64,000 nucleotides of DNA from an uncultured Enterobacteriaceae bacterium. GTDB lineage: Bacteria; Pseudomonadota; Gammaproteobacteria; Eutrophobiales; Eutrophobiaceae. The position numbers and the translations under genes are program-made. Positions within the stretch are counted from its first letter, which is position 1. Each line of letters starts with the position of its first letter. The notes under the pieces are model-generated. The model had not been told where the DNA came from. It did not search any database and saw nothing but the letters and a program-made list of their open reading frames with translations. Location of the stretch: NCBI GenBank assembly GCA_964523895.1, contig CAZGBJ010000007.1, forward strand, positions 23,000 through 86,999, in the 5' to 3' direction. Below are positions 41,840 to 61,892 of the stretch, in pieces.

Positions 41840-41887
41840 TTATCTTGTCGTTAAAAATCATGGGCGTTAATTTATAATTGTTTTTAG

Positions 41888-43428: not shown

Positions 43429-43439
43429 AGGAGTGTTTA

Positions 43440-43673: not shown

Positions 43674-43707
43674 TGTTTAACATCCAGAAAAATAATTTAT
43701 TGTTCTT

Positions 43708-44589: not shown

Positions 44590-44597
44590 ATTAAGTT

Positions 44598-45650: not shown

Positions 45651-45690
45651 TTGTGCCACCTATTAATTTATTTTAAGTTGTAATTATTTA

Positions 45691-46440
45691 ATGTCACTTT
45701 CACAAGACAAAGTAGTAGCAATTATTGAGGCTCGAATGGGCTCGACCAGACTTCCGGGAAAACATTTGTTAAAAGCAAATGGTAAACCAATGCTTCAGCA
45801 CTTAATTGAGCGATTACAACAAGTATCAGTCATTGATGAAATTGTAATAGCGACTACTAATAATAAAAAAGATGATTTGTTAGTTTCTTTTGCAAGTGAA
45901 GTTTCTGTAGGTGTTTATCGAGGAAATGAAAACGATGTTATGGGAAGGGTCGTTGAGGCAGGTGAAGCATTTTCTGCTGATGTGATCTGTGAAATAACTG
46001 GCGATTGCCCAATTATCGATCCTGAAATAGTTGAACAGGTAATTCAGACTTTCCTAGTTAATAATGCTGTGTATGTAAATAACGGTAAGCATGGTGGTTT
46101 ACCTGGAGGAATGAATGTTCAGGTATTTTATCTTGAAACACTAAAACATTCAGCTGAGTTAACTCAAGATCCAAAAGACCGCGAACATGTAACTTTACAT
46201 ATAAAACGAAATTCAGAATTATTTCCTCCAATTTATCTTGTTGCAGAGGCAAAACTTCGTTGGCCAGAGTTAGAGTTAACCTTAGATGAGGGTGATGATT
46301 ATGAATTGCTCAAACGTATTGTTGAGTTTTTTGGGGATGAAAACCCATTTTTTAGTTGTTATGACATCATACAATTGCTCCAAAAAAAAACTGATTGGAT
46401 TCAAATTAATCAGCATGTAAACCGAAAGGGAGAAGGATGA
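45691..46440 (+). CDS. pseF: CMP-pseudaminic acid synthetase-like cytidylyltransferase
   Basis: CTP_transf_3 motifs AIIEARMGSTRLPGK and ITGDCPIIDP. Directly downstream of pseI. Confidence 0.6.
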   Translation: MSLSQDKVVAIIEARMGSTRLPGKHLLKANGKPMLQHLIERLQQVSVIDEIVIATTNNKKDDLLVSFASEVSVGVYRGNENDVMGRVVEAGEAFSADVICEITGDCPIIDPEIVEQVIQTFLVNNAVYVNNGKHGGLPGGMNVQVFYLETLKHSAELTQDPKDREHVTLHIKRNSELFPPIYLVAEAKLRWPELELTLDEGDDYELLKRIVEFFGDENPFFSCYDIIQLLQKKTDWIQINQHVNRKGEG

Positions 46441-47363
46441 GTTTACAAGCTTTAGTCATTGGGCTTGGTCAGATCGGTATGGGTTACGATCTTAATGAGA
46501 TTGATCAGAATATCATCACTTCTTTGGCTCGAGCATTTTCTTTGCACTCGAAGTTTGACTTGATTGGTGGAATTGATAGTGATTCCCATAGAAGGAATAT
46601 GTTTGAGAAATATTTTGGGAAATCAGCTTATTTTAATATTGATCATCTTCTTAAAAAATATAAGCCGGATGTTGTTGCAATAGCAACACCTACAGAATCA
46701 CATTTCAGTATTTTTAAGGAATTGGTTTCTCAATATACACCTAAAGTTATTTTATGTGAAAAACCTCTTTCGTATGATATCAATGAAGCAAAAAAAATGG
46801 TTAGTATAGCCATTGAAAAAGATATTTTATTATTTACCAATTATATGCGTCGATGTAACCCGTCTGTAATTGAGTTTAAGAATCGAATTACAAAAAATGA
46901 GTTTAAAAATCCAATTAAGGGAATATGTTGGTATTCAAAAGGCTTGTTTCATAGCGGATCTCATTTCCTTAATTTATTTCAGTATTGGCTTGGTGACGTT
47001 ATAGATTTTAAGATTATCAATCAAGGACGTTTGTGGAACTCTACCGATCCAGAACCTGATATTGAGATGGTTTTTGAAATGGGAAAAATATTATTTTTAT
47101 CAACAGATACAGAAAGCAATCCTTATTATAGTGTTGAGTTAATGGCGAAAAATGGGCGCATGCGTTATGAGGGTAATCTTATGCTTTTGTCTCTTGCAAG
47201 TTCTAATGAAGAAAAGGAAATATCATCAGATATATCGAGGCCGCAGTGGCATGTTGTTGAGCAGATTTACCAATGTCTCAATGGCAATAAAAGTTCAATA
47301 TGCACAGGAAAGGAAGGGCTTTCTACTCTTGATGTCCTTACACAAATTAAACGGCAGTTATGA
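46437..47363 (+). CDS. Gfo/Idh/MocA-family NAD-dependent sugar oxidoreductase (WbpB/WlbA-like)
   Basis: N-terminal Rossmann ALVIGLGQIGMGY and EKP motif (LCEKPLS). ATGA overlaps on both sides. Confidence 0.6.
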   Translation: MSLQALVIGLGQIGMGYDLNEIDQNIITSLARAFSLHSKFDLIGGIDSDSHRRNMFEKYFGKSAYFNIDHLLKKYKPDVVAIATPTESHFSIFKELVSQYTPKVILCEKPLSYDINEAKKMVSIAIEKDILLFTNYMRRCNPSVIEFKNRITKNEFKNPIKGICWYSKGLFHSGSHFLNLFQYWLGDVIDFKIINQGRLWNSTDPEPDIEMVFEMGKILFLSTDTESNPYYSVELMAKNGRMRYEGNLMLLSLASSNEEKEISSDISRPQWHVVEQIYQCLNGNKSSICTGKEGLSTLDVLTQIKRQL

Positions 47364-48646
47364 AGGGACAGCTAAATAATAAATTAGCTCTTCATGGTGG
47401 TCCAAAGACTATTCAACAGTCGTTTAAAGGCTATAACTCTATTGGAAAAGAAGAAACGGAAGCTGCAAGGCAAGTTGTTAATAGTGGAGTATTGTCTGAA
47501 TTTTTAGGAAGTTGGACGACGGGATTTTATGGCGGTTCTAAAGTTAAGGAATTTGAAAAAGCGTGTGAAAACTATTTTAAGGTAAAGCATGCGGTAACGG
47601 TTAATTCATGGACTTCAGGACTCATTGCTGCTGTTGGTGCTATTGGAATAGAACCTGGTGATGAAGTAATTGTAAGTCCTTGGACAATGTCTGCTAGTGC
47701 AACTGCAATTATGCATTGGAATGCTATACCTGTGTTTGCAGATATTGATAGAGAGACTTTTAATATTGATCCTGTATCTATTTTGAAAAATATTACTCCT
47801 AATACAAAGGCAATTATGGCTGTTGATATTTTTGGTCATTCAGCTGATATGGATATGATAATGAAAATTGCTGATGAAAATGATTTGAAAGTAATATCTG
47901 ATTCAGCTCAATCTCCAGGGGCTTTATATAAAGGTAAATATGCGGGCACGCTTGCTCATGTGGGTGGATATAGCCTCAATTATCATAAACACATTCATAC
48001 TGGAGAGGGCGGGATTCTTGTTACAAATAACGATGATATTGCTGAGAAATTGCGATTGATTCGTAATCATGCTGAAGCAGTGGTAGAAGATAAAGGCGTA
48101 ACTGAGCTTACAAACATGGTTGGCTATAATTTTCGACTTGGTGAAATTGAATGTGCAATAGGCATTGAACAATTAAAAAAACTAAAAGGAATAGTAAAAA
48201 CACGACAAGATTTAGCGGGTAAGCTTACCGAAGGATTACAAGGTTTGCCTGGTTTGCAAACTCCTATTGTAAAGCCAGAATGTACACATGCTTATTATGG
48301 GTATCCTATTATATTAGACATCGAAGAATTAGGTGTAAACAGAGAACGGATTCATGAGGCGTTACAAGCAGAAGGGGTGCCAATAGCAAAAAAATATCAG
48401 AACATACATTTGCTTCCAATGTATCAAAAAAAAATAGCATATGGCTCTAAAGGATTTCCTTGGAATTCGGAAATATGTAAACGTGACATTGATTATGGGA
48501 AAGGTATTTGTCCCATAGCAGAAGATCTTAATGACGTAACGTACCTATGTATTGGTATGTGTGTATATGAATATGATGAAAATGATATCACTATGATAAT
48601 TAAAGCATTTAGGAAGGTATGGGAAAAGTTAGGGGAGTTAATATGA
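47360..48646 (+). CDS. DegT/DnrJ/EryC1/StrS aminotransferase (WbpE/WlbC-like)
   Basis: DegT-family fold, 428 aa, PLP Lys region (GYSLNYHKHIHTGEGG). Confidence 0.65.
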   Translation: MKGQLNNKLALHGGPKTIQQSFKGYNSIGKEETEAARQVVNSGVLSEFLGSWTTGFYGGSKVKEFEKACENYFKVKHAVTVNSWTSGLIAAVGAIGIEPGDEVIVSPWTMSASATAIMHWNAIPVFADIDRETFNIDPVSILKNITPNTKAIMAVDIFGHSADMDMIMKIADENDLKVISDSAQSPGALYKGKYAGTLAHVGGYSLNYHKHIHTGEGGILVTNNDDIAEKLRLIRNHAEAVVEDKGVTELTNMVGYNFRLGEIECAIGIEQLKKLKGIVKTRQDLAGKLTEGLQGLPGLQTPIVKPECTHAYYGYPIILDIEELGVNRERIHEALQAEGVPIAKKYQNIHLLPMYQKKIAYGSKGFPWNSEICKRDIDYGKGICPIAEDLNDVTYLCIGMCVYEYDENDITMIIKAFRKVWEKLGELI

Positions 48647-49176
48647 TTTATGCACTGGGAAACAAATATTTTGTACGAGCACTTCAGCTTAGTGACTTGG
48701 AAGGGCCATATCCATCATGGTTTGAAGACCAGGAAATATGTAAATATAACTCACATGGAAAGTACTTTAAAAGTGCAAATTACTACCGTAGCTATATAGA
48801 AAATATTGATAAAGCATCTCAAATCGTTTGGGCTATATGTCATGAAAGTGATGGTCACATTGGTAATGTAAGCCTGCAATCTCTCTCATTTATAAATCGG
48901 AGTGCTGAATTTGCCATTATAATTGGAAATAAGGATCATATAGGTAAAGGTCTGAGCAAAATGGCCGGAAAGAAAATAATCGAACATGGATTTTATAAGT
49001 TAAATCTGGAGCGTATATATTGTGGTACGGCGGATACTAATTCTCAGATGAAAGCGCTTGCAAAATCACTCGGCATGGTAGAAGAAGGCCGTCGTAGGAA
49101 ACATATTTATCTCGATAATATGTGGGTCGATATTATCGAATATGGTTTACTGCGAAAAGAAGCAAGTTTTAGCTAG
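48643..49176 (+). CDS. GNAT-family N-acetyltransferase
   Basis: GNAT fold. ATG at 48643 overlaps the DegT stop (ATGA), so it is preferred over the ORF-track start at 48619. Confidence 0.5.
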   Translation: MIYALGNKYFVRALQLSDLEGPYPSWFEDQEICKYNSHGKYFKSANYYRSYIENIDKASQIVWAICHESDGHIGNVSLQSLSFINRSAEFAIIIGNKDHIGKGLSKMAGKKIIEHGFYKLNLERIYCGTADTNSQMKALAKSLGMVEEGRRRKHIYLDNMWVDIIEYGLLRKEASFS

Positions 49177-49191
49177 ATAGTTATTGCCGAA

Positions 49192-50058
49192 ATGAAGGTT
49201 GCTGTTGTTTGTTATCATGCTGGTGGTGCAGAAATAATATCTAGTTATATCGCCGAGAATGATATTGATTGTTCTTTTGTGTTAGATGGACCTGCAATAA
49301 AAGTTTTTTCACGACGTTTCGGTGATATAAAAAACATATCTTCTGAAGAAGCATTGATGGAATGTGATAGTTTTTTAACGGGGACTGGATGCGTGTCAAA
49401 TTGGGAATGGAATGCAATACAAATTGCAAAAAATAATAAGAAATATGTTGTGTCCTTTATTGACCATTGGGTTAATTATCATAATCGTTTTGTTCGAAAT
49501 GGCATTGAACAAGTTCCAGATGAGGTCTGGGTGGGTGATCAACATGCTTACACGTTGGCAAGGAAAGAACTGGAAGGGTATCAAGTAAAATTTGTTGACA
49601 ATCCCTATTTCAAAGAAGTAAAAAAAATGTTTGGTTATTATGCTGCGGGCAAAGTCGGTGCCTCGGCCTCAAAAAATATACTATATGTTTGTGAAAATAT
49701 TAATAAACCAGAATTTCATCAAAATGATTCGATTCGTTACATGCTGGAAAATATAAGTAGAATTATTGATAACCCTGATTTGATATTAATCAGACCTCAT
49801 CCGTCAGAAGAGAGCAGTAAATATAAGTGGTTGTGTGATGAATATGATTTGCCAATAGAAATTAGCACAAATTCATTACTTATAGATGATATTAAAAATT
49901 GTAAAATTGTTGCGGGCTGCACATCTATGGCAATGGTGATAGGACTTCTTGCAAAAAAACGGGTTGTTTCTTGCATTCCAGATAACAAGACATCTTTAAC
50001 TTTGCCCTTTCAGGAAATAGAAATGCTTTCTCATATCATTGATGAATGTAACATATGA
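49192..50058 (+). CDS. Hypothetical protein, candidate glycosyl/polysaccharide transferase partner
   Basis: ORF only. Overlaps the next ORF by 4 nt. Confidence 0.3.
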   Translation: MKVAVVCYHAGGAEIISSYIAENDIDCSFVLDGPAIKVFSRRFGDIKNISSEEALMECDSFLTGTGCVSNWEWNAIQIAKNNKKYVVSFIDHWVNYHNRFVRNGIEQVPDEVWVGDQHAYTLARKELEGYQVKFVDNPYFKEVKKMFGYYAAGKVGASASKNILYVCENINKPEFHQNDSIRYMLENISRIIDNPDLILIRPHPSEESSKYKWLCDEYDLPIEISTNSLLIDDIKNCKIVAGCTSMAMVIGLLAKKRVVSCIPDNKTSLTLPFQEIEMLSHIIDECNI

Positions 50059-51692
50059 TTGATCTGAATGAATTGAAAGAAAAATATTTTAATTTATTAA
50101 ATTGGTTAAGGGGTGATAAATCATGCCGTATATTCATAGAGCATAATAAAAAAATATTTTCTTCTGTACCTAATAAAAAAGCAGATAAATTTATTGTTCT
50201 GCTTGAATTAAATGATATGCATTCCAGCATAATCGCTTATAGTTATTTGGCTAATGTGTTGTCATCATTCTATGGTGCTGAAATCATAGCTTATGTTCCA
50301 GATTTTCCAACCAGTTGGAAACGAATGCTTGCATGGCACATGCGTCGAAGATTAAACATGGATGTCTTCGCAATATATAAATCATTCGGCACTAAAGGTT
50401 TCTTGCTTCCAACTCTCAACAAGAAACAATGTAAAAAAGCAGAATGTTTGTTTAAAGGTATATTGGAAAATTTGAAAACAATATCAGATGTTGAGTCTGT
50501 TGTTATAGATGGGGTGCATATTGGGGACTTAATATATGATTCGTACCTTAAATATTATGAAAGACCAACTATAGAGATTAATGATAAGGATTTCCATGTT
50601 TCGCTGTTTAAAACAGTTAAATTATTTGTCTTTTGGCAAGATTATATTAAAAACCATAATGTCTCAGCCATTAATGTGAGCCACTGTGTTTACAATACTG
50701 CCTTACCTGTTCGAATCGCAATTAATGAAGGTGTTTCAGTCTTTCAGGCTAATGCAACACATGTATATAGACTAAGTAAAAAGAATAACTTTGCTTATAA
50801 TGATGTTAAGTATTACAAAGAACGTTTTTCAGCATTGCCTGTTGAAGTTCGTGATGCAGGTCTGAAAGTAGCTGAGCGTAGAATTAATGAACGTTTTTCC
50901 GGCAAAATAGGTATTGATATGTCATATTCGACTAAATCAGCATATGGTGAGTTTAAAGAAGAAAGACTAATTGCCAAATCAGACAGAAAAAAAATATTAA
51001 TTGCCGCACATTGTTTCTTCGATAGCCCGCATAGCTATGGCGTTAATCTATTTCCGGATTTTTATGAATGGCTTGACTTTTTAGGTTCTACATCTGAAGA
51101 AACAGATTATGATTGGTACATTAAAACTCATCCAGATTATGTATCAAAAACAAAAGAAATTATTGAGCTGTTTGTTAGTAAGTATAAGAAATTTAATTTG
51201 TTACCTTCGGACAGCTCTCATAATCAGATTATTAAAGAAGGAATAGATGTTGCTTTAAGCGTCTATGGAACAATTGGGTTTGAATATGCCGCGCAAGGCA
51301 TCCCTGTGATTAACGCATCGTTAAATAATCCACACATAGCTTACAATTTCAACTTGCATCCTAGGAGTATTGAGGAATATAAAAAAATATTGGTGAATTT
51401 GGAAAATCTCAGTCTGACGATAGACAAGAAAGATGTGTATGAATATTATTTTATGAAAAATATATATAACACTGAAGATTGGTTGTTTTCTGACTATGCT
51501 AAAATGATTAAAGATGTTGGTGGCTATAGAGAGCAATTTAGTTCAAAAGTTTATGCTGTTTGGCTGCATGGATTTAATGTGAATAGCCATCAAGAAACAA
51601 TAAAAGCATTATCAAAGTTTGTAGAATCTGAAGATTTCCGTCTCAATCATCATCATTCAAATAGAAAATTTAACATGAAAAAGGTGGCATAA
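50055..51692 (+). CDS. Hypothetical 545-aa protein, possibly a capsule-synthesis-type (KpsC/KpsS-like) or other non-Leloir sugar transferase
   Basis: ORF only. Weak resemblance to large polysaccharide-assembly transferases. The 28% GC is much lower than the surroundings. Confidence 0.3.
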   Translation: MIDLNELKEKYFNLLNWLRGDKSCRIFIEHNKKIFSSVPNKKADKFIVLLELNDMHSSIIAYSYLANVLSSFYGAEIIAYVPDFPTSWKRMLAWHMRRRLNMDVFAIYKSFGTKGFLLPTLNKKQCKKAECLFKGILENLKTISDVESVVIDGVHIGDLIYDSYLKYYERPTIEINDKDFHVSLFKTVKLFVFWQDYIKNHNVSAINVSHCVYNTALPVRIAINEGVSVFQANATHVYRLSKKNNFAYNDVKYYKERFSALPVEVRDAGLKVAERRINERFSGKIGIDMSYSTKSAYGEFKEERLIAKSDRKKILIAAHCFFDSPHSYGVNLFPDFYEWLDFLGSTSEETDYDWYIKTHPDYVSKTKEIIELFVSKYKKFNLLPSDSSHNQIIKEGIDVALSVYGTIGFEYAAQGIPVINASLNNPHIAYNFNLHPRSIEEYKKILVNLENLSLTIDKKDVYEYYFMKNIYNTEDWLFSDYAKMIKDVGGYREQFSSKVYAVWLHGFNVNSHQETIKALSKFVESEDFRLNHHHSNRKFNMKKVA

Positions 51693-51694
51693 TA

Positions 51695-52471
51695 ATGAAA
51701 GCTGTGATTCTGGCGGGTGGTTTGGGCACTAGGTTGAGTGAAGAGACTGATTTGAGACCAAAGCCTATGGTGGAAATTGGTAACAAACCAATCTTATGGC
51801 ACATCATGAAAAATTATTCTGCTCATAACATCAATGAATTCATTATTTGTTGTGGATATAAGGGCTATGTGATTAAGGAATATTTTGCGAATTATTTTTT
51901 ACACATGTCTGATGTTACATTTGATATGCGTGATAATAAAATGAATGTTCATCATAATAATGCTGAGCCATGGAAAGTAACATTATTAGATACGGGTGAA
52001 AAAAGTGAAACGGGTGGCCGATTAAGACGTGTGAATGAGTATGTGAAAAATGATGATGCATTTTGTTTTACATATGGTGATGGTGTCAGTGATGTGGATA
52101 TAACTGCCTTGATAAAATTCCATTTTAATAAAAATAAATTAGCTACTTTAACAGCGACTAGACCACCAGGCCGTTATGGTGCAGTCAAACTTGACTCTAA
52201 TGATATCGTCGAAAAATTTCAGGAAAAACCTGAAGGGGACGGAAGTTGGATCAATGGTGGTTTTTTTGTGCTATCTCCAGCGGTGCTTAAATTAATTGAT
52301 AATGATTCTATTAGTTGGGAGAGTAGCACCCTAAATACTTTATCTGAAAAACGTCAACTTAGTGCATTTCGTCATTCTGGTTTTTGGCAACCTATGGATA
52401 CTCTTCGTGATAAGAATTTTCTAAATGAATTATGGAATAGTGGTAATGCACCATGGAAAGTTTGGGACTAA
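51695..52471 (+). CDS. rfbF: Glucose-1-phosphate cytidylyltransferase
   Basis: MKAVILAGGLGTRLSEETxxxPKPMVEIGxKPILWHIMK is the RfbF/DdhA N-terminus. Confidence 0.85.
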   Translation: MKAVILAGGLGTRLSEETDLRPKPMVEIGNKPILWHIMKNYSAHNINEFIICCGYKGYVIKEYFANYFLHMSDVTFDMRDNKMNVHHNNAEPWKVTLLDTGEKSETGGRLRRVNEYVKNDDAFCFTYGDGVSDVDITALIKFHFNKNKLATLTATRPPGRYGAVKLDSNDIVEKFQEKPEGDGSWINGGFFVLSPAVLKLIDNDSISWESSTLNTLSEKRQLSAFRHSGFWQPMDTLRDKNFLNELWNSGNAPWKVWD

Positions 52472-53532
52472 ATCTGTTTTCTGAGCTTTATCACGGTAGA
52501 CGTGTTCTTCTAACGGGGCATACTGGCTTTAAAGGAAGTTGGCTTGCACTATGGTTAAAAATGCTGGGCGCAAAAGTTACCGGGCTTTCACTTGCACCGG
52601 GATCGTCACCCAACCACTGGGATTTATTACAAATGGGAATGCAAAGTCATTTTCTGGATATTCGTGATGTTTCTGCAATAAAAGATACTATTAAAGCTGT
52701 GCAACCGGAAATAATGTTCCATCTTGCAGCTCAATCCTTGGTAAGGGGTTCCTATAACGACCCATTAAGAACCTGGGAAACTAACGTCATGGGCACAGCT
52801 AATCTTCTGGAAATTTGCCGGGAAGTGCCCGAATTGAAAGCCATTGTTATTGTCACATCAGATAAATGCTATGAAAACCGTGAAAGGCTGAAGGGATACT
52901 CTGAAAATGATCCTTTAGGTGGATATGATCCATATAGCGCATCGAAAGCTGGTGCGGAACTTGTTGCTGCCAGTTATCGTAATTCTTTTTATTCTGAGCC
53001 TAATATGCCACTTCTTGCAACTGCTCGTGCTGGAAATGTGATCGGGGGAGGTGATTGGTCAGAAAATCGTTTGATCCCCGATCTTGTTCGTGCAATAGAG
53101 AATAAAGAAATATTGGAAATACGTTCTCCTGATTCTATAAGACCTTGGCAACATGTGCTTGAATCACTTTCTGGATATCTCATGTTAGGACAAAAATTAC
53201 TCGAAGGTCAGAGTGAATTTGCCTCGGCATGGAATTTTGGTCCTGACCAGAAAGCGAATTTTACTGTATCACAAGTGCTTAATGGATTGAGTGAATATTG
53301 GACAGATGTTTCTTGGGGAGTAACAAAGGCATCTCAACCACATGAAACTGGATTACTATTTTTGGATAGTTCTAAAGCGAATAATACGTTGAGGTGGAAG
53401 CCCGTATTGAATTTCAAAGAAACTTTGATGATGACTGCGGATTGGTATAAGGAATACCAGAAAACGGGTAGCGTAATAAGCCTGCAACAATTAGTGCAAT
53501 ATTCAGAAAAACTAGCTGCCATTTCAGAATAA
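52453..53532 (+). CDS. rfbG: CDP-glucose 4,6-dehydratase
   Basis: LTGHTGFKGSWLxLWL and YxxSK (YSASK) motifs of RfbG/DdhB. Overlaps rfbF. Confidence 0.8.
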   Translation: MESLGLNLFSELYHGRRVLLTGHTGFKGSWLALWLKMLGAKVTGLSLAPGSSPNHWDLLQMGMQSHFLDIRDVSAIKDTIKAVQPEIMFHLAAQSLVRGSYNDPLRTWETNVMGTANLLEICREVPELKAIVIVTSDKCYENRERLKGYSENDPLGGYDPYSASKAGAELVAASYRNSFYSEPNMPLLATARAGNVIGGGDWSENRLIPDLVRAIENKEILEIRSPDSIRPWQHVLESLSGYLMLGQKLLEGQSEFASAWNFGPDQKANFTVSQVLNGLSEYWTDVSWGVTKASQPHETGLLFLDSSKANNTLRWKPVLNFKETLMMTADWYKEYQKTGSVISLQQLVQYSEKLAAISE

Positions 53533-53536
53533 ATTT

Positions 53537-54094
53537 ATGTCTTTGATGATTAATGAAACCTTTATTTCAGGTGTTTTTCTTATAGGAAATACACAATTTG
53601 CTGATCCTAGAGGGAAATTTTCTCGTTTTTTCTGCAAAGAAGAACTTTCTACTGTATTAGAAGGAAGAGATATTAAGCAGGTTAATTTTTCTTGTACCGA
53701 ATCTATAGGGGCTATTAGAGGACTTCATTATCAATCTTCACCTCATGCAGAGATGAAAATTGTACGTTGCCTTAAAGGAAAGGTATGGGATGTGGTCGTT
53801 GATCTTCGTGAGGATTCGCCAACTTTCTTGAGCTGGCATACCGAAGAGCTTTCCCCCTCAAATCACAATGCATTAGTTATTCCAGAGGGGTGTGCTCATG
53901 GGTTCCAGGTCTTGCAGTCAGGTTCTGAATTACTCTATATGCATACAGAGTATTATAATCCCGAATATGAAGGGGGCTTACGTTATAACGATCCAAAGTT
54001 AAAAATTCCGTGGCCAATTCCAGCAGTTGACATTTCAGAGCGAGACTTGAACCATCCTTTAATTAGTTCAAATTATAAAGGCATTAAAATTTGA
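53537..54094 (+). CDS. RmlC/RfbC-like cupin epimerase acting on an NDP-4-keto-6-deoxyhexose
   Basis: dTDP-4-dehydrorhamnose 3,5-epimerase fold (GLHYQ, His/Asp dyad region). 185 aa. Confidence 0.65.
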   Translation: MSLMINETFISGVFLIGNTQFADPRGKFSRFFCKEELSTVLEGRDIKQVNFSCTESIGAIRGLHYQSSPHAEMKIVRCLKGKVWDVVVDLREDSPTFLSWHTEELSPSNHNALVIPEGCAHGFQVLQSGSELLYMHTEYYNPEYEGGLRYNDPKLKIPWPIPAVDISERDLNHPLISSNYKGIKI

Positions 54095-55314
54095 ATTGTC
54101 GTCATTGTAAACAGCAGCTGGTGCATGAGTTCTTGAACTTGGGTTATGCTCCACCATCAAATTCATATTTGAGTATTGAAGATTTAAATAAACCCGAGTT
54201 AACTTATCCATTGAGACTCTTTGTTTGTTCTAATTGTTGGTTAGTGCAAATAGAGGACTACACTTCAGCTGAAGAACTTTTTGATAATGATTATGCCTAT
54301 TTCTCTTCAGTTTCTAAAGACTGGCTTGCACATGCAAAAAGCTATGTTGAGAAAATCATTCCAAAAATTGGTTTAACTAATGACAGTTATGTCATTGAGA
54401 TTGCGGCTAATGATGGCTACCTATTAAAGAATTTTGTGGAATTGAAAATTCCGTGTTTGGGTATTGAACCTACGGCTAACACTGCAGAAGCAGCAGAAAA
54501 ACAGGGCATTGCTATACTTCGTGATTTCTTTAGTAAAACATTGGCGACACAATTACAGAAAGAAAGTAAACAGGCGGACTTGATTATTGGGAATAATGTC
54601 TATGCTCATGTGCCTGATTTAAACAATTTTACTGCTGGGCTAAAAATCTTACTTAAAGAAAGGGGAACTATTACTCTGGAATTTCCTCACTTGATGCAAT
54701 TGTTGAAAAATACACAATTTGATACTGTATATCATGAGCATTTCTCATACTTATCTTTATACACCGTAATCAGAATATTCTCTGTAGCAGAATTGCGAGT
54801 ATGGCATGTAGAGGAGCTGGATACTCATGGTGGAAGCTTGAGGATCTATGGTTGCCATGAGAATGACTCTCGACAATCAACACCAATTGTCGCGGAAATA
54901 TTAGCTGAAGAAGAACTTCAAGGGATGCGTAATTTAAAACTTTATAGCTTTTTCCAAGAACGTGCAGATAGAATAAAGAATGCACTTTTAAAATTCTTGA
55001 TTGAACAGAAAGATAAAGGTAAAAAAGTTGTGGCTTATGGAGCTGCAGCGAAAGGTAATACAATACTTAACTATGCGGGGGTCAAGTCAGATCTGCTTCC
55101 GAGAGTTTATGATGCCGCTCAGTCAAAGCAAGAAAAATTTCTTCCTGGTAGCCATATTCCAATATTGAACCCAGATGAAATCGAAAAAGATAGTCCTGAT
55201 TATATTTTGATTTTACCCTGGAATATCTCAAAAGAGATCATGGGAAAACTCAAGCAAGTTAAAGAATGGAATTGCCAGTTTGTAACAGCTATTCCTGAGA
55301 TTGAAATTATTTAG
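54091..55314 (+). CDS. NDP-hexose C-methyltransferase (TylC3/EryBIII/NovU-like) with N-terminal Cys4 zinc ribbon
   Basis: CRHC...CSNC zinc ribbon, TVYHEHFSYLS and VAYGAAAKGNT motifs. 407 aa, typical of sugar C-methyltransferases. Confidence 0.7.
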   Translation: MNCRHCKQQLVHEFLNLGYAPPSNSYLSIEDLNKPELTYPLRLFVCSNCWLVQIEDYTSAEELFDNDYAYFSSVSKDWLAHAKSYVEKIIPKIGLTNDSYVIEIAANDGYLLKNFVELKIPCLGIEPTANTAEAAEKQGIAILRDFFSKTLATQLQKESKQADLIIGNNVYAHVPDLNNFTAGLKILLKERGTITLEFPHLMQLLKNTQFDTVYHEHFSYLSLYTVIRIFSVAELRVWHVEELDTHGGSLRIYGCHENDSRQSTPIVAEILAEEELQGMRNLKLYSFFQERADRIKNALLKFLIEQKDKGKKVVAYGAAAKGNTILNYAGVKSDLLPRVYDAAQSKQEKFLPGSHIPILNPDEIEKDSPDYILILPWNISKEIMGKLKQVKEWNCQFVTAIPEIEII

Positions 55315-55319
55315 CTCAT

Positions 55320-56438
55320 ATGAGACAGCGTATTCACTACACAAAGCCTTCTATAACAGAGTTGGAAGTAGAGTATGCCACAGATGCTACTCGTAATGGT
55401 TGGGGTGAGAAATGTTATGAATATATTGAGAAATTTGAAGATTCATTTAAAGAACATCTTAATGTTAAATATGCAATTGCGACATCAAGTTGTACTGGAG
55501 CCCTTCACTTAGGGCTCTCTGCTTTAGGAGTAGGCCTCGGAGATGAAGTAATACTCGCTGATACAAATTGGATTGCATCGGTTTCCCCTATTACGTATCT
55601 TGGTGCATCTCCAGTCTTTGTTGATATATTACCGGATACGTGGTGTATAGATCCCAAAGAAATTGAAAAAAATATTACTTCAAAAACAAAAGCGATTATT
55701 GCAGTGCATTTGTATGGAAACCTTTGTGATATGGATGCTTTACTCGAGATTAGTCAAAAATATAATGTACCTGTTATTGAAGATGCTGCAGAGGCTATTG
55801 GTTCTATATATCATGGAAAAAGAGCAGGTAGCATGGGCAAATTTGGGTGTTTTTCTTTTCATGGAACGAAGACTTTAACTACAGGAGAAGGCGGGTTGTT
55901 TGTCACTAATGATGAAAGTCTTTATGAAAAAGTATTGACGCTAAGTAATCATGGTAGAGATAAAAATCAAACAAGACAATTTTGGCCAGATATGATTGGC
56001 TATAAATATAAGATGAGTAATATACAAGCAGCGATAGGTTGTGCGCAACTCAATAGGATTGATGAATTGATTAATGAAAAAAGAAGAATATTTGATGCTT
56101 ATTATCATGAGATATCAGAATATCCTCTTGCAATGAATCCAGAATATGATGGCACTGTAAATGGATATTGGATGCCAACAGTCATTATAGCTGAAGCTGT
56201 TGGCATCGAAACAGATAAACTGTTGTCCGAATTTCATAAGCGAGAAATGGATTGTAGAGTGTTTTTTTATCCGTTGAGTATGTTGTCAATGTTTAAAGAA
56301 AAGAAATCCAACAAAAATAGTTATTCACTATACAAGAGAGGAATTAACCTGCCATCGTATCATGATCTTACCCAAGATCAGATTTACAGTGTTACTCAAG
56401 TTGTAAAAAATTATTTTAAAAATATGAGTCTAACTTGA
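55320..56438 (+). CDS. DegT-family PLP aminotransferase
   Basis: 372 aa (aminotransferase size rather than the roughly 437-aa E1 dehydrase). Lys in FSFHGTKTLTTGEGG. Confidence 0.65.
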   Translation: MRQRIHYTKPSITELEVEYATDATRNGWGEKCYEYIEKFEDSFKEHLNVKYAIATSSCTGALHLGLSALGVGLGDEVILADTNWIASVSPITYLGASPVFVDILPDTWCIDPKEIEKNITSKTKAIIAVHLYGNLCDMDALLEISQKYNVPVIEDAAEAIGSIYHGKRAGSMGKFGCFSFHGTKTLTTGEGGLFVTNDESLYEKVLTLSNHGRDKNQTRQFWPDMIGYKYKMSNIQAAIGCAQLNRIDELINEKRRIFDAYYHEISEYPLAMNPEYDGTVNGYWMPTVIIAEAVGIETDKLLSEFHKREMDCRVFFYPLSMLSMFKEKKSNKNSYSLYKRGINLPSYHDLTQDQIYSVTQVVKNYFKNMSLT

Positions 56439-56528
56439 TTTATACTCATTTATATAAGAAGCATTCGGTCAATTAAGAACAATAATATTTAAAAAAGTAC
56501 TTTAATATGTTCTGTATATAATAACTAC

Positions 56529-57206
56529 ATGAAAAATAATATATTATTATGGGGTGGGCGTAGTAAAGCACGGATTGTATGTCAAATGTTAAAAGAGATG
56601 TTTGAAGTTGAAAGTTTAATAATATTTGACAATACACTTGATGAAATTTCATTTGAATATGGTGGTTCTCACATCAAGGATATAAAAAATCTGAAAAGTA
56701 TAATTCAAAATTTATCACATTTTGTTGTTTGTATTGGTGGAGAACATGGCGCTGCACGCTATAAAACAGCAATTACACTTGAAGCGCTAGGACTAAAAAC
56801 GGTTGATTTAATCCATCATCATTCATTTATAGATACTTGTAATGAAATTGGTCGCGGTTGCCAAATAATGCCTTCCGCTACAATTCATAAATTTTGTAAG
56901 ATAGGTGACTACTCAATTATTAATACAAATGCCACGATCGATCACGAATGTAACATAGGAAATGGCGTTCATATAATGGCAGGAGCATCAATTGCTGGGA
57001 AAATTGTAATTGATGATTTTTCTACTATAGGGACAAATGCTACGATATTGCCAAACCTTCGAATTGGGCGAGGAGCATTTGTAGGTGCCGGTGCTGTTGT
57101 AACAAAAGATGTTGATGATTACGGCGTTGTTGTTGGTGTCCCAGCAAAAGAGGTAAGGAAGAATATTATAAGTATAAATGAGATGCTGTTAGAAAAATTG
57201 AAATAA
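56529..57206 (+). CDS. Hexapeptide-repeat sugar N-acetyltransferase (PglD/NeuD-like)
   Basis: N-terminal Rossmann-like domain plus C-terminal LbH repeats (IGxGxxI x several). Confidence 0.6.
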   Translation: MKNNILLWGGRSKARIVCQMLKEMFEVESLIIFDNTLDEISFEYGGSHIKDIKNLKSIIQNLSHFVVCIGGEHGAARYKTAITLEALGLKTVDLIHHHSFIDTCNEIGRGCQIMPSATIHKFCKIGDYSIINTNATIDHECNIGNGVHIMAGASIAGKIVIDDFSTIGTNATILPNLRIGRGAFVGAGAVVTKDVDDYGVVVGVPAKEVRKNIISINEMLLEKLK

Positions 57207-57433
57207 TATATTTTTAATTGAACTTTGAATATGTAGCTTTTAGATTTTTTATTACTTTAAATAGCACTTCCGTGAAATATTAGTATCGAGGGTATTCTTT
57301 AAAAGATAAGTTTTTTCCATACTAATTATTTATTAACTATAAATTTTCGTTGGTAAATTAAGAAGGTGGCGAACTCATCAATATTTAATGCCAGATTGTG
57401 AAAAAATGTGTCTTTAAAGTAAAAGGATAAGAT

Positions 57434-58201
57434 ATGAACGATAGAAATAGTGATAATCCATATGAAGATTTTAAAAGTGACTGCGTTAAGGAAGTATCTA
57501 AGCAATCAGAAGACACTGAATTTACTAATATTACAAATGATTGGTTAAACGTGGCTAATAGGTATAAATACTCTTACCATTATGAATGGTTAGGGAGGCC
57601 AATTATTCAGTATCCACAAGACATAATGGCAATGCAGGAAATAATTTGGTCTATCAAACCAGATTTAATTATAGAAACAGGCATTGCTCATGGTGGGTCT
57701 TTAATTTTTTCAGCATCAATGTTGGAGCTAAATGCAATGTCTGAAGGCCCAGTAGACGCTAAAGTATTAGGGATAGATGTGGATATACGTAAACATAATC
57801 GCGATGCGATAGAAGCACACCCTTTGTATCATCGAATTTCAATGATTGAAGGTTCGAGCATATCTTCGGATGTGATCGAAATGGTGAAAGAAGAGTCGAA
57901 GAATAAAAATAACATACTTGTTTTTTTGGATTCAAATCATACGCATGAACATGTTTATAAGGAACTGATTGCATATGCACCATTAGTGACTTTGGGAAGT
58001 TATTGCGTTGTGTTCGATACTGTAATAGATGATTTTCCTAAATCAATGTTTCCAAATAGACCATGGGGTCCTGACGATAATCCGAAAACTGCAGTAAAAA
58101 AATATTTAAATGAGCATTCAGAATTTATTGTAGATGAATATTTTCAAAACAAATTAAAAATAACTGTGGCCCCAGATGGATATTTAAAAAAGATAAAATG
58201 A
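57434..58201 (+). CDS. CmcI/cephalosporin-hydroxylase-family SAM-dependent O-methyltransferase (rhamnosyl O-methyltransferase-like)
   Basis: PF04989-like signature: WxGxPIIQYPQDxxxxQExIW, IIETGxAHGGS. Confidence 0.55.
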   Translation: MNDRNSDNPYEDFKSDCVKEVSKQSEDTEFTNITNDWLNVANRYKYSYHYEWLGRPIIQYPQDIMAMQEIIWSIKPDLIIETGIAHGGSLIFSASMLELNAMSEGPVDAKVLGIDVDIRKHNRDAIEAHPLYHRISMIEGSSISSDVIEMVKEESKNKNNILVFLDSNHTHEHVYKELIAYAPLVTLGSYCVVFDTVIDDFPKSMFPNRPWGPDDNPKTAVKKYLNEHSEFIVDEYFQNKLKITVAPDGYLKKIK

Positions 58202-59010
58202 CGAAAAGTTATTCATCTCGTATTGGAGCTATGCGCCTTATAGCGAGACTAGATATAAAGTCTGATAAATTAATAAAAACAATAAAATTGGAAGGCGTGC
58301 AGCATATAGGGGATCCTGGAATAGTAGCAAAAAAATACTACGAACAAGGTATCGATGAAATACTATTATTGGATACTGTTGCTAGTTTATATGGAAGGAA
58401 CCATCTCGTAGACGTAATCAAATATGTTTCATCAAACACGTATATACCAATTACAGTTGGTGGAGGAATAAGAAGTATTGAAGATGTAGAAAGTATTTTA
58501 TCTGTCGGCGGTGATAAAATAGCAATTAATACTGCTGTAATAAAAAACCCTGTGTTAATTAGTGACTTGGCAAAAAATTTTGGCTCTCAGTGCATTGTTT
58601 TGCAAGTCGATGCAAAATTTATTTGTGAAGGAAAATGGGAACCATATACAGATGGAGGTCGTGAACGAACCTATTTAGATGTTATTGATTGGGTAAAAAA
58701 AGGTTATGAAATGGGGGCAGGTGAAATACTTTTAACATCAATTGATCGAGAAGGAACATGTAAGGGGCTTGATTTGGGTTTATGTAATGTTGTTTCTAAA
58801 TCTGTGCCTATTCCTGTAATTGCATCAGGAGGAGTTGGTTCTATTGAGGACGTTATTCAAGGTAGTAAAAATAGTAATGTTGATGCAATTGCAATGTCGG
58901 ATTTACTTAATGTAAAAAAAATAAATATTAAAGAAATTAAAGATAGATGCGCTGAAAAAGGAATTGAGATAAGAAAGGTTGCTAATGAAAATAGTTATAA
59001 TCGATTATAA
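58198..59010 (+). CDS. wbuZ: HisF-like imidazole-glycerol-phosphate-synthase cyclase paralog
   Basis: (beta/alpha)8 HisF motifs (ARLDIK..., GGGIRS, SGGVG). ATGA overlap with the upstream gene. Paired with a hisH-like gene and wbuX. Confidence 0.65.
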   Translation: MTKSYSSRIGAMRLIARLDIKSDKLIKTIKLEGVQHIGDPGIVAKKYYEQGIDEILLLDTVASLYGRNHLVDVIKYVSSNTYIPITVGGGIRSIEDVESILSVGGDKIAINTAVIKNPVLISDLAKNFGSQCIVLQVDAKFICEGKWEPYTDGGRERTYLDVIDWVKKGYEMGAGEILLTSIDREGTCKGLDLGLCNVVSKSVPIPVIASGGVGSIEDVIQGSKNSNVDAIAMSDLLNVKKINIKEIKDRCAEKGIEIRKVANENSYNRL

Positions 59011-59623
59011 ATCAGGAAATATTCAGAGTCTTATACATGCGTTGCAAGAAATTGGGTGTGATTTTTTGCTCTCTAGTAAAAAAGAAGATATTTTAAATGC
59101 AGATCGAGTGATACTACCTGGGGTTGGAGCGTTTGGAAGGTGTATAGAACAATTTAAAAATTTTAAGCTAGACCTTGTCATTAAAGAGTATGTGGCATCA
59201 GGGAAGTATGTTTTAGGTATTTGTGTTGGTATGCAAATACTTTTTGAAGAGAGTAATGAATTCAAGAGAAATGAAGGTTTAGGGATTATTAAAGGCCAAG
59301 TTAAGAAACTTCCTGTATCTGCGAAAAATGGTGAGCGAATAAAAATACCACATACAAATTGGTCTCCTATTTATTCCCCGCAGAAAAAAAAATGGATAAA
59401 TACACCTTTTTCAAATATTGTAGAAAATGAATACGTCTATTTTGTGCATTCTTACCATGCAATTCCCTCTAATAAAGATGAGGTTATTGCTCTCACATCT
59501 ATTGGGGGTCATGATATATGCGCAGCTATACAAAAAGAAAATGTTTTTGGTTGCCAATTTCATCCTGAAAAAAGTGGCAACGTTGGCTTATCAATATTAA
59601 GAAACTTTATTGCTTTGAAATGA
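58979..59623 (+). CDS. wbuY: HisH-like class I glutamine amidotransferase paralog
   Basis: GATase1 triad context (LPGVGAFG, GICVGMQ, FHPEKS). Confidence 0.65.
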   Translation: MLMKIVIIDYKSGNIQSLIHALQEIGCDFLLSSKKEDILNADRVILPGVGAFGRCIEQFKNFKLDLVIKEYVASGKYVLGICVGMQILFEESNEFKRNEGLGIIKGQVKKLPVSAKNGERIKIPHTNWSPIYSPQKKKWINTPFSNIVENEYVYFVHSYHAIPSNKDEVIALTSIGGHDICAAIQKENVFGCQFHPEKSGNVGLSILRNFIALK

Positions 59624-59654
59624 ATAGTTATAAACAGATATTTGAGGTATTGAG

Positions 59655-60908
59655 ATGACTTTTTCTGAAAATGTGAAAAATAATTTAAACAGAAATTTTG
59701 GTGGTTTGGAAGTTAAGTATGGCTTGCCTAGCGAAGTTGTGTTCTGCAAAAAATGTGTAATATCAAATCAGCGACCAATTACAACTCTTGAGGTTGAGCA
59801 TGATGAGTCACAAAAAAAGCCAACGACAAATTTTGATGAAGATGGTGTTTGCGATGCATGTCGTTGGGCAGAGTACAAGGAAGAAAAAATAGATTGGGAG
59901 GAAAGAGAGCGACATTTAAAAGAGCTTCTTAATAGATACAGAAGTCCGAATGGAGATTATGATGTGGTTGTGCCTGTTAGCGGGGGTAAAGATTCATGCT
60001 ACGTGGCCCATTTGCTAAAAGAAAAATATAAAATGAATCCATTGACTGTAACTTGGGCTCCTCATATATATACAGAACCAGGTTGGCGTAATCTTCAATC
60101 TTTTATTAACTCGGGTTTTGATAATATTCTTACAACACCGAATGGGAAAGTGCATCGGTTACTTACTAAATTAGCATTTGAAAAGCTTGGGCATGCCTTC
60201 CAGCCATTTATTTTAGGGCAAAGAAATATCGCGCCTAAAATTGCACTTAAGAATAACATAAAGCTAGTGTTTTATGGGGAAAACGTTGCTGAATATGGTA
60301 ATAGAATAGAAGATAATCTACATCCTCAAATGGAAAAACTATTATATACAAGTATAGACATATGTAATGATGATTTATTTATTTCTGGTGTGACAATAAA
60401 AGAATTAAAAGAAAAATATAGTATTCAACATTCTGATCTAATTCCATATGGTTCTCCAAGTATGGATGAAATTGAAAGTAATGAAATTGAGTTTCACTAT
60501 ATGAGCTTTTATAAGAAGTGGATTCCTCAAGATAACTATTACTATGCTGTTCGGAATACTGGTTTCCAACCAAATGATGAAAGAACTCAAGGAAGTTATT
60601 CTAAGTACAGTAGCTTTGATGATAAAATAGATTCCTTTCATTATTATATGACATACATTAAGTTTGGTATGGGACGTGCTGTGGCTGATGCATCTCAGGA
60701 AATTAGAACTGGAAAGATCAGTAGAGATGAGGGAGTTGCATTAGTTAATCGCTATGATCATGAATTTCCATCTAGATACTATAAAGAATTCCTTGATTAT
60801 ATTGATATAACTGATGATGAATTTAAATCAATAACCGAGGTGTTTCGTTCTCCTCATTTGTGGAAAAAAGAAGATGATCAATGGGTTTTGAGGCATAAAA
60901 TAAAGTAG
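59655..60908 (+). CDS. wbuX: N-acetyl sugar amidotransferase (WbuX/WbpG/PseA family, PP-loop ATPase)
   Basis: PP-loop SGGKDS, Cys-rich N-terminus, 417 aa. Confidence 0.65.
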   Translation: MTFSENVKNNLNRNFGGLEVKYGLPSEVVFCKKCVISNQRPITTLEVEHDESQKKPTTNFDEDGVCDACRWAEYKEEKIDWEERERHLKELLNRYRSPNGDYDVVVPVSGGKDSCYVAHLLKEKYKMNPLTVTWAPHIYTEPGWRNLQSFINSGFDNILTTPNGKVHRLLTKLAFEKLGHAFQPFILGQRNIAPKIALKNNIKLVFYGENVAEYGNRIEDNLHPQMEKLLYTSIDICNDDLFISGVTIKELKEKYSIQHSDLIPYGSPSMDEIESNEIEFHYMSFYKKWIPQDNYYYAVRNTGFQPNDERTQGSYSKYSSFDDKIDSFHYYMTYIKFGMGRAVADASQEIRTGKISRDEGVALVNRYDHEFPSRYYKEFLDYIDITDDEFKSITEVFRSPHLWKKEDDQWVLRHKIK

Positions 60909-60928
60909 TAATTATAAAATTTTTATAA

Positions 60929-61825
60929 ATGGCATCAGACAACCCAATCGTAAGCATAGGTATTCCTGTGTATAATTCGGAAAAATTTATTTCCGATACG
61001 CTCAATTCAATTGTTTCCCAGTCGTACAAAGAATTGGAAATAATTATTTCAGATAATGCGTCTACTGATGCAACATCAGAAATATGTAAGAGTTACTCGG
61101 AAAGGGATATAAGAATAAAGTATGTAAGGCAGGAATATAATCTAGGTAGTGATTTGAATTTTAAATACGTTTTTGATGTTGCAAAGGGAGAATTCTTTAT
61201 GTGGCATGCTGCACATCATCTTCGTTCTCATGATTATGTTGAAAAAAATATTATTTTTTTAAAAAATAATCCACTATATGTTGCTTCAGGATCTCCAGAC
61301 TGCTTTAAAGATGAAATTAATGATCCGAGCAAACTAGCATTCTTTTCATTTGATGGTAATTGTTACAATAATTTAAAATGTTTTCTGAATAATTGTTGGA
61401 GAAGTCATGGGATATTTTATTCCTTGATAAGGAAAACAACGATAGGCAGTACAGAATTAATAGGTTGGAAATGTATAGCTCAAGATTGGATCTTGATTAT
61501 TTATTTATTGTTAAAGGGGAAGATTCATAGAGTTCAGGAAGGGAGATTGCTTTTGGGAAGAGAAGGGCAAAGTAACTCAAATGTTCCATTTGATGGGCTT
61601 ATAAATAAGAAAATAGAGCATTTTTTTCCACTGTATGAATTTACATTATATTTTATTAAATCGATTTCTTTTGAAAATGAGATAGGAGTTGTTGAAAAAA
61701 TTAATTTATATTCAATTATTTTTTGGTTAAATATAAAATATAAAATCAGGGAAGGAATAAATGTAATATTGCGTGCAGCACAAATAACGGCAAATAATTT
61801 ATTTATGAGAAAGGATAAAGTATAA
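60929..61825 (+). CDS. Family 2 glycosyltransferase
   Basis: VSIGIPVYNSEKFISDTLNSIVSQSYKELEIIISDNASTD, the classic GT2 N-terminus with DxD-type motifs. Confidence 0.7.
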   Translation: MASDNPIVSIGIPVYNSEKFISDTLNSIVSQSYKELEIIISDNASTDATSEICKSYSERDIRIKYVRQEYNLGSDLNFKYVFDVAKGEFFMWHAAHHLRSHDYVEKNIIFLKNNPLYVASGSPDCFKDEINDPSKLAFFSFDGNCYNNLKCFLNNCWRSHGIFYSLIRKTTIGSTELIGWKCIAQDWILIIYLLLKGKIHRVQEGRLLLGREGQSNSNVPFDGLINKKIEHFFPLYEFTLYFIKSISFENEIGVVEKINLYSIIFWLNIKYKIREGINVILRAAQITANNLFMRKDKV

Positions 61826-61892
61826 GTTGCAAGAAATTAAATATTGCATTGAGATGGTGTGATAGTATGAGCAATCTACTTAATTAAATGCG

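Follow-up and report, generated by a model that had tools for sequence, protein, structure and literature searches.

Gene content of a glycan locus in an uncultured Enterobacteriaceae bacterium points to a seven-step cytidine diphosphate-sugar pathway, probably for N-acetylkansosamine or a stereoisomer

The DNA analysed in this work, referred to as the window, was a stretch of 64,000 nucleotides from contig CAZGBJ010000007.1 of an uncultured Enterobacteriaceae bacterium. A sequence-only reading of the window had proposed that positions 51695-57206 encode a pathway for a cytidine diphosphate (CDP)-linked branched-chain acetamido-deoxyhexose. In the list of open reading frames (ORFs) of the window, six consecutive ORFs, all intact, were found on the + strand at these positions, and their coordinates and family assignments are displayed in Table 1 together with those of the genes that follow. 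The first five genes were separated by -19, 4, -4 and 5 bases, and a gap of 90 bases was observed ahead of the sixth, which encodes a left-handed beta-helix (LbH) acetyltransferase. The same proteins were also called on an independent assembly of this organism. Among the loci compared below, L001 is an independent copy of the window. A terminator scan detected no terminator-like site on the + strand from 49000 to 62000 and was uninformative on a splitting of the block; promoter-like sites in the block region were not more frequent than in shuffled sequences and were likewise uninformative for splitting into operons.

Table 1. Genes of the CDP-sugar block and genes directly following it, in window coordinates. 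aa, amino acids; SAM, S-adenosylmethionine; NDP, nucleoside diphosphate; PLP, pyridoxal phosphate.
Gene product	Position	Strand	Length	Support
RfbF/DdhA glucose-1-phosphate cytidylyltransferase	51695-52471	+	258 aa	TIGR02623 equivalog, 458.9 bits vs cut-off 300.25, full length
RfbG CDP-glucose 4,6-dehydratase	52453-53532	+	359 aa	TIGR02622 equivalog, 469.4 bits vs cut-off 278.45
RmlC-family epimerase	53537-54094	+	185 aa	PF00908, 3.9e-57
TylC3/TcaB9/MtmC-type SAM-dependent NDP-4-ketohexose C-methyltransferase	54091-55314	+	407 aa	PF08421, 6e-24; PF13489, 2.2e-9; PF08484, 2e-59
DegT PLP-dependent aminotransferase, perosamine-synthetase-like	55320-56438	+	372 aa	PF01041, 4.4e-121
LbH N-acetyltransferase, PerB/PglD class	56529-57206	+	225 aa	TIGR03570 NeuD/PglB/VioB, 173.5 bits vs cut-off 160.8
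CmcI/rhamnosyl O-methyltransferase homologue	57434-58201	+		PF04989, 2.9e-93
WbuZ-like protein of amidotransferase trio	58198-59010	+		NCBIfam model
HisH-like protein of amidotransferase trio	58979-59623	+		NCBIfam model
WbuX protein of amidotransferase trio	59655-60908	+		NCBIfam model
Family 2 glycosyltransferase	60929-61825	+		PF00535, 1.6e-26

Based on the equivalog models, both of which were passed above cut-off, the product of RfbF is assigned as CDP-D-glucose and that of RfbG as CDP-4-keto-6-deoxy-D-glucose. On the model for the deoxythymidine diphosphate (dTDP)-glucose dehydratase, RfbG reached just 102 bits against a cut-off of 365. In the RmlC-like protein, His64, Lys74, Tyr134 and Asp170 were identical to the aligned residues of three solved RmlC enzymes (3ryk, 7pvi and 6c46), and the catalytic His/Asp dyad, the Lys and the Tyr were thus all kept. 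The protein is predicted to be a C-5 epimerase or a C-3 and C-5 epimerase of a 4-keto sugar, single and double epimerisation being indistinguishable from its sequence.

The fourth protein displayed a three-domain plan consisting of an N-terminal zinc domain, a class I SAM domain and a C-terminal Methyltransf_14 domain. Its relatives in the PDB were MtmC (9e-68), KijD1 (4e-64) and TcaB9 (9e-61), all sugar 3-C-methyltransferases, and no enzyme of another kind was found among them. Cys3, Cys6, Cys46 and Cys49 aligned with the zinc cysteines of TcaB9, and Tyr68, His173, Tyr214, Glu216 and His217 corresponded to Tyr76, His181, Tyr222, Glu224 and His225 of that enzyme. Both the zinc cysteines and the active-site Tyr/His/Tyr/Glu/His set were invariant across an alignment with 11 homologues. 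The sites which crystallographers had probed in TcaB9 were recovered by a PDB search with the TcaB9 sequence; the changes relative to the wild type in entries 4e31, 4e2x, 4e2y and 4e2z fall exactly on both tyrosines, the glutamate and the second histidine of this set. The enzyme probably acts at C-3 of an NDP-4-ketohexose, a position indicated by the link to kansosamine described below and not by the sequence itself.

For the DegT aminotransferase, the best PDB matches were an unnamed sugar aminotransferase (7b0m, 1e-83) and the perosamine synthetase of Caulobacter crescentus (3bn1, 3e-77). The PLP lysine (Lys184) and the cofactor-binding Asp155 were present and aligned to those of perosamine synthetase. 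The RfbH/E1 dehydrase model NF011936 gave 175.7 bits against a cut-off of 423, and the top NCBIfam models were of the LegC/PseC type, both under their cut-offs. As perosamine synthetase, the closest characterised relative, acts at C-4, the protein is predicted to be a C-4 aminotransferase. The LbH acetyltransferase was most similar in the PDB to the perosamine N-acetyltransferase PerB (2.7e-22), followed by PglD, and the His in its IDHEC motif aligned with the His in VDHDC of PerB and in IEHEC of PglD.

The gene assignments of the sequence-only reading were borne out by these data. It had taken rfbF and rfbG as the source of CDP-4-keto-6-deoxyglucose, which agrees with the two equivalog models, and the next two genes as an RmlC-like epimerase and a TylC3-type sugar C-methyltransferase, which agrees with the conserved residues and, for the latter, with the architecture and the solved relatives; as far as the sequence tells, the methyltransferase keeps its catalytic residues and is not an O- or N-methyltransferase. 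The description of the DegT protein as an aminotransferase and not the E1 dehydrase held, with Lys184 at the PLP position and the RfbH model failed, as did that of the last gene as an LbH N-acetyltransferase, whose TIGR03570 score was above cut-off, with PerB as the closest enzyme and the active-site His aligned.

Relatives of the C-methyltransferase were abundant. A search of 5.8 billion proteins returned at least 8000 scored matches, many at 63-67% identity, and a scan of one genome per species located at least 597 stretches encoding relatives. Gene neighbourhoods were counted in the best 80 of these at least 597 stretches, and loci with enough flanking sequence were used as denominators. 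Spurious antisense ORFs disturbed the ORF-based clustering of loci with a high GC content, and the counts were therefore based on tblastn, with identity floors of 45% for the aminotransferase and 40% for CmcI. The order rfbF-rfbG-rmlC was kept immediately 5' of the C-methyltransferase gene in 54 of 75 loci. An aminotransferase homologue (at least 45% identity; 52-68% where listed) lay directly 3' of the C-methyltransferase in 21 of 73. In 36 of 59 loci a CmcI homologue (at least 40%; 43-65% where listed) was encoded no more than 9 kb further downstream, and among the loci with an adjacent aminotransferase this was so in 16 of 18.

This distribution bore on the extent of the block. The six genes at 51695-57206 stood as the sequence-only reading had them, but the pathway probably extends beyond 57206. 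The CmcI-like gene that follows is probably its seventh gene, with 2-O-methylation as the candidate function. The sole PDB relative of its product was CmcI (6e-7), and the CmcI/rhamnosyl O-methyltransferase family is linked to 2-O-methylation of rhamnose; it is from this family link and from the co-occurrence of the genes that methylation at O-2 is proposed. The DegT-LbH-CmcI arrangement was also found in Phaeobacter sp. 22II1-1F12B (L030), a deltaproteobacterial metagenome-assembled genome (MAG; L036) and two Bacteroidota MAGs (L043 and L066), so that the seven-gene cassette recurred at four loci of three other bacterial groups. In L036 an additional TylF-like methyltransferase was placed between the LbH and CmcI genes.

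Downstream of the C-methyltransferase, four variants of the cassette were distinguished. The window's variant has the aminotransferase, the LbH acetyltransferase and CmcI. In another, the aminotransferase is followed by a PhyH-like dioxygenase, a methyltransferase, a GNAT protein, WbqC and CmcI, and in a further one by an ATP-grasp ligase, a short-chain dehydrogenase/reductase (SDR) and a methyltransferase. In the remaining variant a short SDR, presumably a 4-ketoreductase, comes after the C-methyltransferase, with or without a second methyltransferase, and is followed by CmcI. A methyltransferase of about 360 aa was observed between the putative 4-ketoreductase and CmcI in this neutral-sugar variant (L049, 11266-12366; cluster c10, with loci L012, L021, L023, L033, L035, L039 and L044). 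It contained a class I SAM domain and a C-terminal sugar C-methyltransferase domain, the N-terminal zinc domain was not detected in it, and its role might be that of a further C- or O-methyltransferase.

The recorded hosts of the relatives included Alpha-, Beta-, Gamma-, Delta- and Epsilonproteobacteria, Mariprofundaceae, Acidobacteria, Verrucomicrobia, Thermoguttaceae, Bacteroidota, Anoxynatronum, Mycobacterium, Prochlorococcus, Leptospiraceae and two archaeal MAGs. The rfbF-rfbG-rmlC-C-methyltransferase core was present in a Promethearchaeota MAG (L055), in Candidatus Methanovirga (L071) and in the single-cell genome of Prochlorococcus sp. AG-347-L20 (L059), with C-methyltransferase identities of 53-55%, and its occurrence there points to wide horizontal spread. 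The expectation that a CDP-linked version would be uncommon was therefore wrong at the genomic level, the core being spread over many bacterial phyla and two archaeal MAGs. The cassette is common, and the window is one carrier of one recurring variant.

Kansosamine, an antigenic determinant of the lipooligosaccharides (LOS) of Mycobacterium kansasii, is 4-amino-4,6-dideoxy-3-C-methyl-2-O-methyl-L-mannose, and to form it from a 4-keto-6-deoxyhexose, exactly a C-methyltransferase, an epimerase and a 4-aminotransferase are needed. The C-methyltransferase of one related locus, from Mycobacterium (L041), had an 85%-identical homologue annotated in M. kansasii. In the M. kansasii locus, a family 2 glycosyltransferase (GT2), an SDR and a second GT2 are encoded on the - strand. 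On the + strand, a core of a nucleotidyltransferase (257 aa), an SDR (362 aa), an RmlC-like protein (183 aa), a C-methyltransferase (407 aa) and a DegT protein (369 aa) is followed by an ATP-grasp protein, an SDR of 417 aa and a TylF-type methyltransferase. Next, on the - strand, come a methyltransferase of 178 aa and then a large polyketide synthase. The five core genes had the same order on the + strand as in the window, with identities of 68% for RfbF, 58% for RfbG, 53% for the RmlC-like protein, 59% for the C-methyltransferase and 64% for DegT. The order of the locus agrees with MKAN27425 to MKAN27485 in Table 1 of PMC4403928. In that work, the M. kansasii LOS cluster was described as containing a glucose-1-phosphate cytidylyltransferase, an epimerase/dehydratase, a rhamnose epimerase and a methyltransferase that are absent from M. 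marinum, and the extra LOS genes were ascribed to the unique sugars fucose and N-acylkansosamine (PMC4403928).

Taken together, the genes at 51695-58201 probably constitute a seven-step CDP-sugar pathway leading to N-acetylkansosamine or a stereoisomer of it for a surface polysaccharide. RfbF would form CDP-D-glucose, from which RfbG would generate CDP-4-keto-6-deoxy-D-glucose by oxidation and dehydration. The RmlC-like enzyme and the methyltransferase would then exploit the acidity of the carbons flanking the 4-keto group. In the presumed order, the epimerase would invert C-5, possibly C-3 too, to give an L-sugar, and the methyltransferase would transfer the methyl group of SAM onto C-3 via an enolate beside the 4-keto group; both steps are suggested by the enzyme families, the conserved residues and the kansosamine link. 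Subsequently the perosamine-synthetase-like DegT enzyme would convert the 4-keto into a 4-amino group. Transamination at C-4 is proposed from the closest characterised relatives, from the conserved adjacency of the gene and from the lack of a ketoisomerase in the window: in family scans of the window no 3,4-ketoisomerase, 2,3-dehydratase or E1 dehydrase/E3 was found, and no 4-ketoreductase adjoined the CDP block. The PerB-like enzyme would acetylate the 4-amine with acetyl-CoA, as suggested by its conserved gene position and by its similarity to PerB, which acetylates a 4-amino-4,6-dideoxyhexose, and the CmcI-like enzyme would probably methylate O-2. The predicted product is CDP-4-acetamido-4,6-dideoxy-3-C-methyl-(2-O-methyl)-L-hexose, which would be the CDP form of N-acetylkansosamine if the configuration is manno, and the acceptor to which a nearby glycosyltransferase would add the sugar would be a polymer like an O-antigen or a capsule. 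The identities of the genes, their conserved catalytic residues and the conserved synteny all agree with the CDP-linked branched acetamido-deoxyhexose foreseen in the sequence-only reading, the product itself being a prediction.

Several observations weighed against this pathway. Searches of the PDB and the literature revealed no assayed or solved enzyme of the CDP cassette, the nearest structures being dTDP-type actinomycete enzymes; the kansosamine link consists of gene content and published cluster tables, not of genetics on those genes, and no biochemical characterisation of the mycobacterial kansosamine-region genes was found in the searched literature. The RmlC-like protein scored 153.0 bits on the equivalog TIGR01221, slightly under the cut-off of 155.75, which is expected if the nucleotide is CDP and not dTDP. 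The LbH acetyltransferase was just 27-38% identical to its positional counterparts in related loci, and most aminotransferase-containing loci use other acylating genes. The CmcI-like gene is preceded by a gap of 227 bases, its product reached 90.3 bits on the rhamnosyl O-methyltransferase equivalog NF045824 against a cut-off of 400, and the enzyme might act on another sugar of the large glycan locus. Moreover, some members of the C-methyltransferase family may methylate C-5. Enzymes of the NovU type, which are C-5 methyltransferases, are members of it and are partnered by the RmlC-like 3-epimerase NovW, which was among the PDB matches of the epimerase, and C-3 and C-5 both adjoin the 4-keto group. 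Methylation at C-5 would yield a noviose-like 5-C-methyl (gem-dimethyl) 4-acetamido sugar. We consider this highly improbable, given that the solved relatives are all C-3 methyltransferases whose aligned catalytic residues are kept, and that the syntenic M. kansasii genes lie in a cluster whose product has a 3-C-methyl sugar.

The role of the aminotransferase was weighed in the same way. About half of the related loci have a short SDR reductase and not an aminotransferase right after the methyltransferase, the best NCBIfam models of DegT are of the LegC/PseC type though below cut-off, and the locus makes several other amino sugars. The aminotransferase and the acetyltransferase could serve some other nucleotide sugar of the locus, such as a 4-amino sugar linked to uridine diphosphate or guanosine diphosphate (GDP), and the CDP sugar would be a neutral 6-deoxy-3-C-methylhexose resembling vinelose or evalose, with its reductase encoded elsewhere. 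There is little to recommend this arrangement in the window, where no reductase adjoins the block and the aminotransferase begins 5 bases past the methyltransferase; homologues hold the same position in 21 of the 73 loci and in M. kansasii, and the enzyme is only 30% identical to the DegT paralogue at 47360-48646 and coexists with dedicated PseB and PseC. We thus favour the 4-acetamido sugar, whose 4-substituent could in turn be altered by the amidotransferase trio. WbuX scored 374.3 bits on TIGR03573 (cut-off 203.2), the WbuZ-like protein 252.5 bits on TIGR03572 (cut-off 299.7) and the HisH-like protein 205 bits on TIGR01855. The acetamidino-forming trio follows the CDP block directly, and 4 bases are shared between the CmcI-like gene and the WbuZ-like gene, which starts at 58198. 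The trio may act on pseudaminic acid or on the branched sugar, and membership in the CDP pathway is possible. That it turns the 4-acetamido into a 4-acetamidino (acetimidoylamino) group appears unlikely to us, as the trio was not seen in any of the 80 related loci examined and pseudaminic acid, a classical acetamidino carrier, is an obvious alternative substrate in the same locus.

A broader proposal, which we regard as doubtful, combines this step with the spread of the cassette: the trio would act on the sugar to give a 4-acetamidino-4,6-dideoxy-3-C-methyl-2-O-methyl-hexose, and the CDP cassette would define an extensive family of kansosamine- and vinelose-type sugars whose biochemistry is untouched. 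To our knowledge, the combination of branch, ether and amidine (4-acetamidino-3-C-methyl-2-O-methyl) is known from no glycan. If the proposal were true, such sugars would occur on the surfaces of many environmental bacteria, among them marine Prochlorococcus and Phaeobacter, and of some archaea.

Downstream of the trio, the GT2 is a candidate transferase for the branched sugar. Its similarity cluster was present in 20 of the 81 loci analysed, L001 included, and relatives directly followed the CmcI-like gene in L002, L005, L018, L036, L043, L046 and L050. At 61893-63776, 3' of the GT2, a protein of 627 aa was encoded that matched no family and has roughly nine hydrophobic segments; it could be a polymerase or a membrane glycosyltransferase.

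The block is part of one co-directional glycan locus that begins near 27664 and continues up to the window's last position, in which head genes are followed by a pseudaminic acid set, further amino-sugar genes and the CDP block. The head comprises an epimerase, two nucleotide-sugar dehydrogenases, an adenosine 5'-phosphosulfate (APS) kinase, a NusG paralogue and an ATP-binding cassette exporter. Within 31280-33174, the APS kinase is a hint that the polymer may be sulfated, the NusG paralogue is a possible operon-specific antiterminator, and a winged-helix protein is also encoded. A complete pseudaminic acid set at 35098-46440 was composed of PseB (545 bits), PseC (541 bits), a PseH-like GNAT protein, PseG and PseI. 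It was accompanied by an aldo-keto reductase, a FabH-like protein, a hexapeptide acyltransferase of 293 aa, a second cytidylyltransferase and a protein of 679 aa in which a CMP-sugar-type cytidylyltransferase is fused to a class III aminotransferase, and the set and its extras suggest an elaborately N-acylated nonulosonic acid. An assignment of the block's DegT and LbH proteins to pseudaminic or legionaminic acid synthesis was rejected: PseB, PseC, PseG and PseI are encoded elsewhere in the window, and DegT is under the LegC and PseC cut-offs. This separate complete set leaves the two genes of the block available for the CDP sugar.

Between the pseudaminic acid set and rfbF (46437-51692), a GFO/IDH/MocA oxidoreductase, a DegT paralogue of 428 aa, below both the PseC and LegC cut-offs, and a GNAT protein were observed. 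Two proteins of 288 and 545 aa without a Pfam or NCBIfam match are encoded immediately 5' of rfbF, the last one 2 bases from it. At the other end of the window, a polyunsaturated-fatty-acid-synthase-like or polyketide block at 157-16296 contained a PS-DH protein, a FabH-like protein, an alpha/beta hydrolase, an AMP-binding enzyme, a 3-beta-HSD-type reductase, a phosphopantetheinyl transferase and a protein of 2233 aa, in which two ketosynthase stretches were accompanied by three FabA-like dehydratase domains. Inside this block, at 979-4006, two SDRs and a GDP-mannose 4,6-dehydratase are encoded, and a glycolipid might be involved. A homologue of cytochrome P460 and a protein with Sel1 repeats are encoded on the - strand at 19251-20296, in the interval that separates the lipid block from the housekeeping genes leuCD/gltX. 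LeuC of the window shared 91% identity with a protein recorded under 'Thiotrichaceae bacterium' and 84% with one recorded under 'Legionellales bacterium'.

If the assignment is correct, it would provide candidate genes for kansosamine and, probably via the reductase variant, for vinelose, two sugars which have long been known and are genetically unassigned. CDP-activated C-methyl branched sugars would then be widespread on the surfaces of environmental bacteria and not a speciality of actinomycete antibiotics. In addition, the cassette is modular, with a conserved core and interchangeable reductase, aminotransferase, acyl and methyl sets, and could serve as an enzyme source for CDP-sugar glycoengineering.

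Among known systems, the pathways of dTDP-L-mycarose and of D-mycarose and tetronitrose (TylC3/TylK, MtmC, TcaB9 and KijD1) have the same methyltransferase fold, zinc site and catalytic residues, and likewise pair the C-methyltransferase with an RmlC-family epimerase. They differ in using dTDP and not CDP, in their 2,6-dideoxy or 3-amino substrates, in the 2,3-dehydratase they need and in their location in actinomycete antibiotic clusters. The C-methyltransferase of the window matched the solved dTDP-type enzymes with E-values of 1e-60 to 1e-68, compared with identities of 51-65% within the CDP cassettes. The description of C-methyl branched amino sugars as classically dTDP-linked in actinomycete antibiotics, given in the sequence-only reading, fits these relatives. 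Precedents for the CDP-type pathway exist as well, the five-gene core being present in the LOS cluster of M. kansasii. With the CDP-3,6-dideoxyhexose pathway (RfbF, RfbG, E1/RfbH, E3 and the abequose, paratose and tyvelose synthases) the window has the first two enzymes in common, whereas E1, E3 and the downstream synthase are absent from it. A conventional pathway of this type was rejected on the absence of E1 and E3 from the window and the failure of DegT on the RfbH model. The GDP-N-acetylperosamine pathway of C. crescentus (Per/PerB) provides the nearest named solved structures for the aminotransferase and the acetyltransferase and makes 4-acetamido-4,6-dideoxy-mannose, but its product is a GDP-linked D-sugar without the C-methyl branch.

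CDP-vinelose of Azotobacter vinelandii, a CDP-linked 3-C-methyl sugar, has been known since the 1960s. With its structure, CDP-6-deoxy-3-C-methyl-2-O-methyl-L-talose, it is a gammaproteobacterial example of a CDP-activated 6-deoxy-L-hexose bearing 3-C-methyl and 2-O-methyl groups, and it fits the reductase and CmcI variant of many related loci. It carries a 4-hydroxyl in contrast to the predicted 4-acetamido group, and a ketoreductase would be expected in place of the aminotransferase and acetyltransferase. In the literature searched for CDP-glucose with a C-methyltransferase, for the two entry enzymes with a C-methyltransferase or for vinelose, nothing was found beyond a Sinorhizobium gene list, with ddhA, ddhB and an NDP-hexose 3-C-methyltransferase, and papers on Coxiella virenose, which describe a GDP route.

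The closest system was the N-acylkansosamine cluster of M. kansasii (MKAN27440-27475 region), which shares the five-gene core in the same order. Its tailoring set of an ATP-grasp ligase, a 417-aa SDR and a TylF methyltransferase fits its 2-methoxypropionyl amide; this set is absent from the window, in which the PerB-like acetyltransferase and the CmcI-like methyltransferase are found instead. The acceptor in M. kansasii is a glycolipid, as opposed to the polysaccharide expected in the Gram-negative host of the window. The enzyme families are all known, and what differs from the known systems is an N-acetyl, CmcI-tailored, Gram-negative version of what is predicted to be a kansosamine-type CDP pathway.

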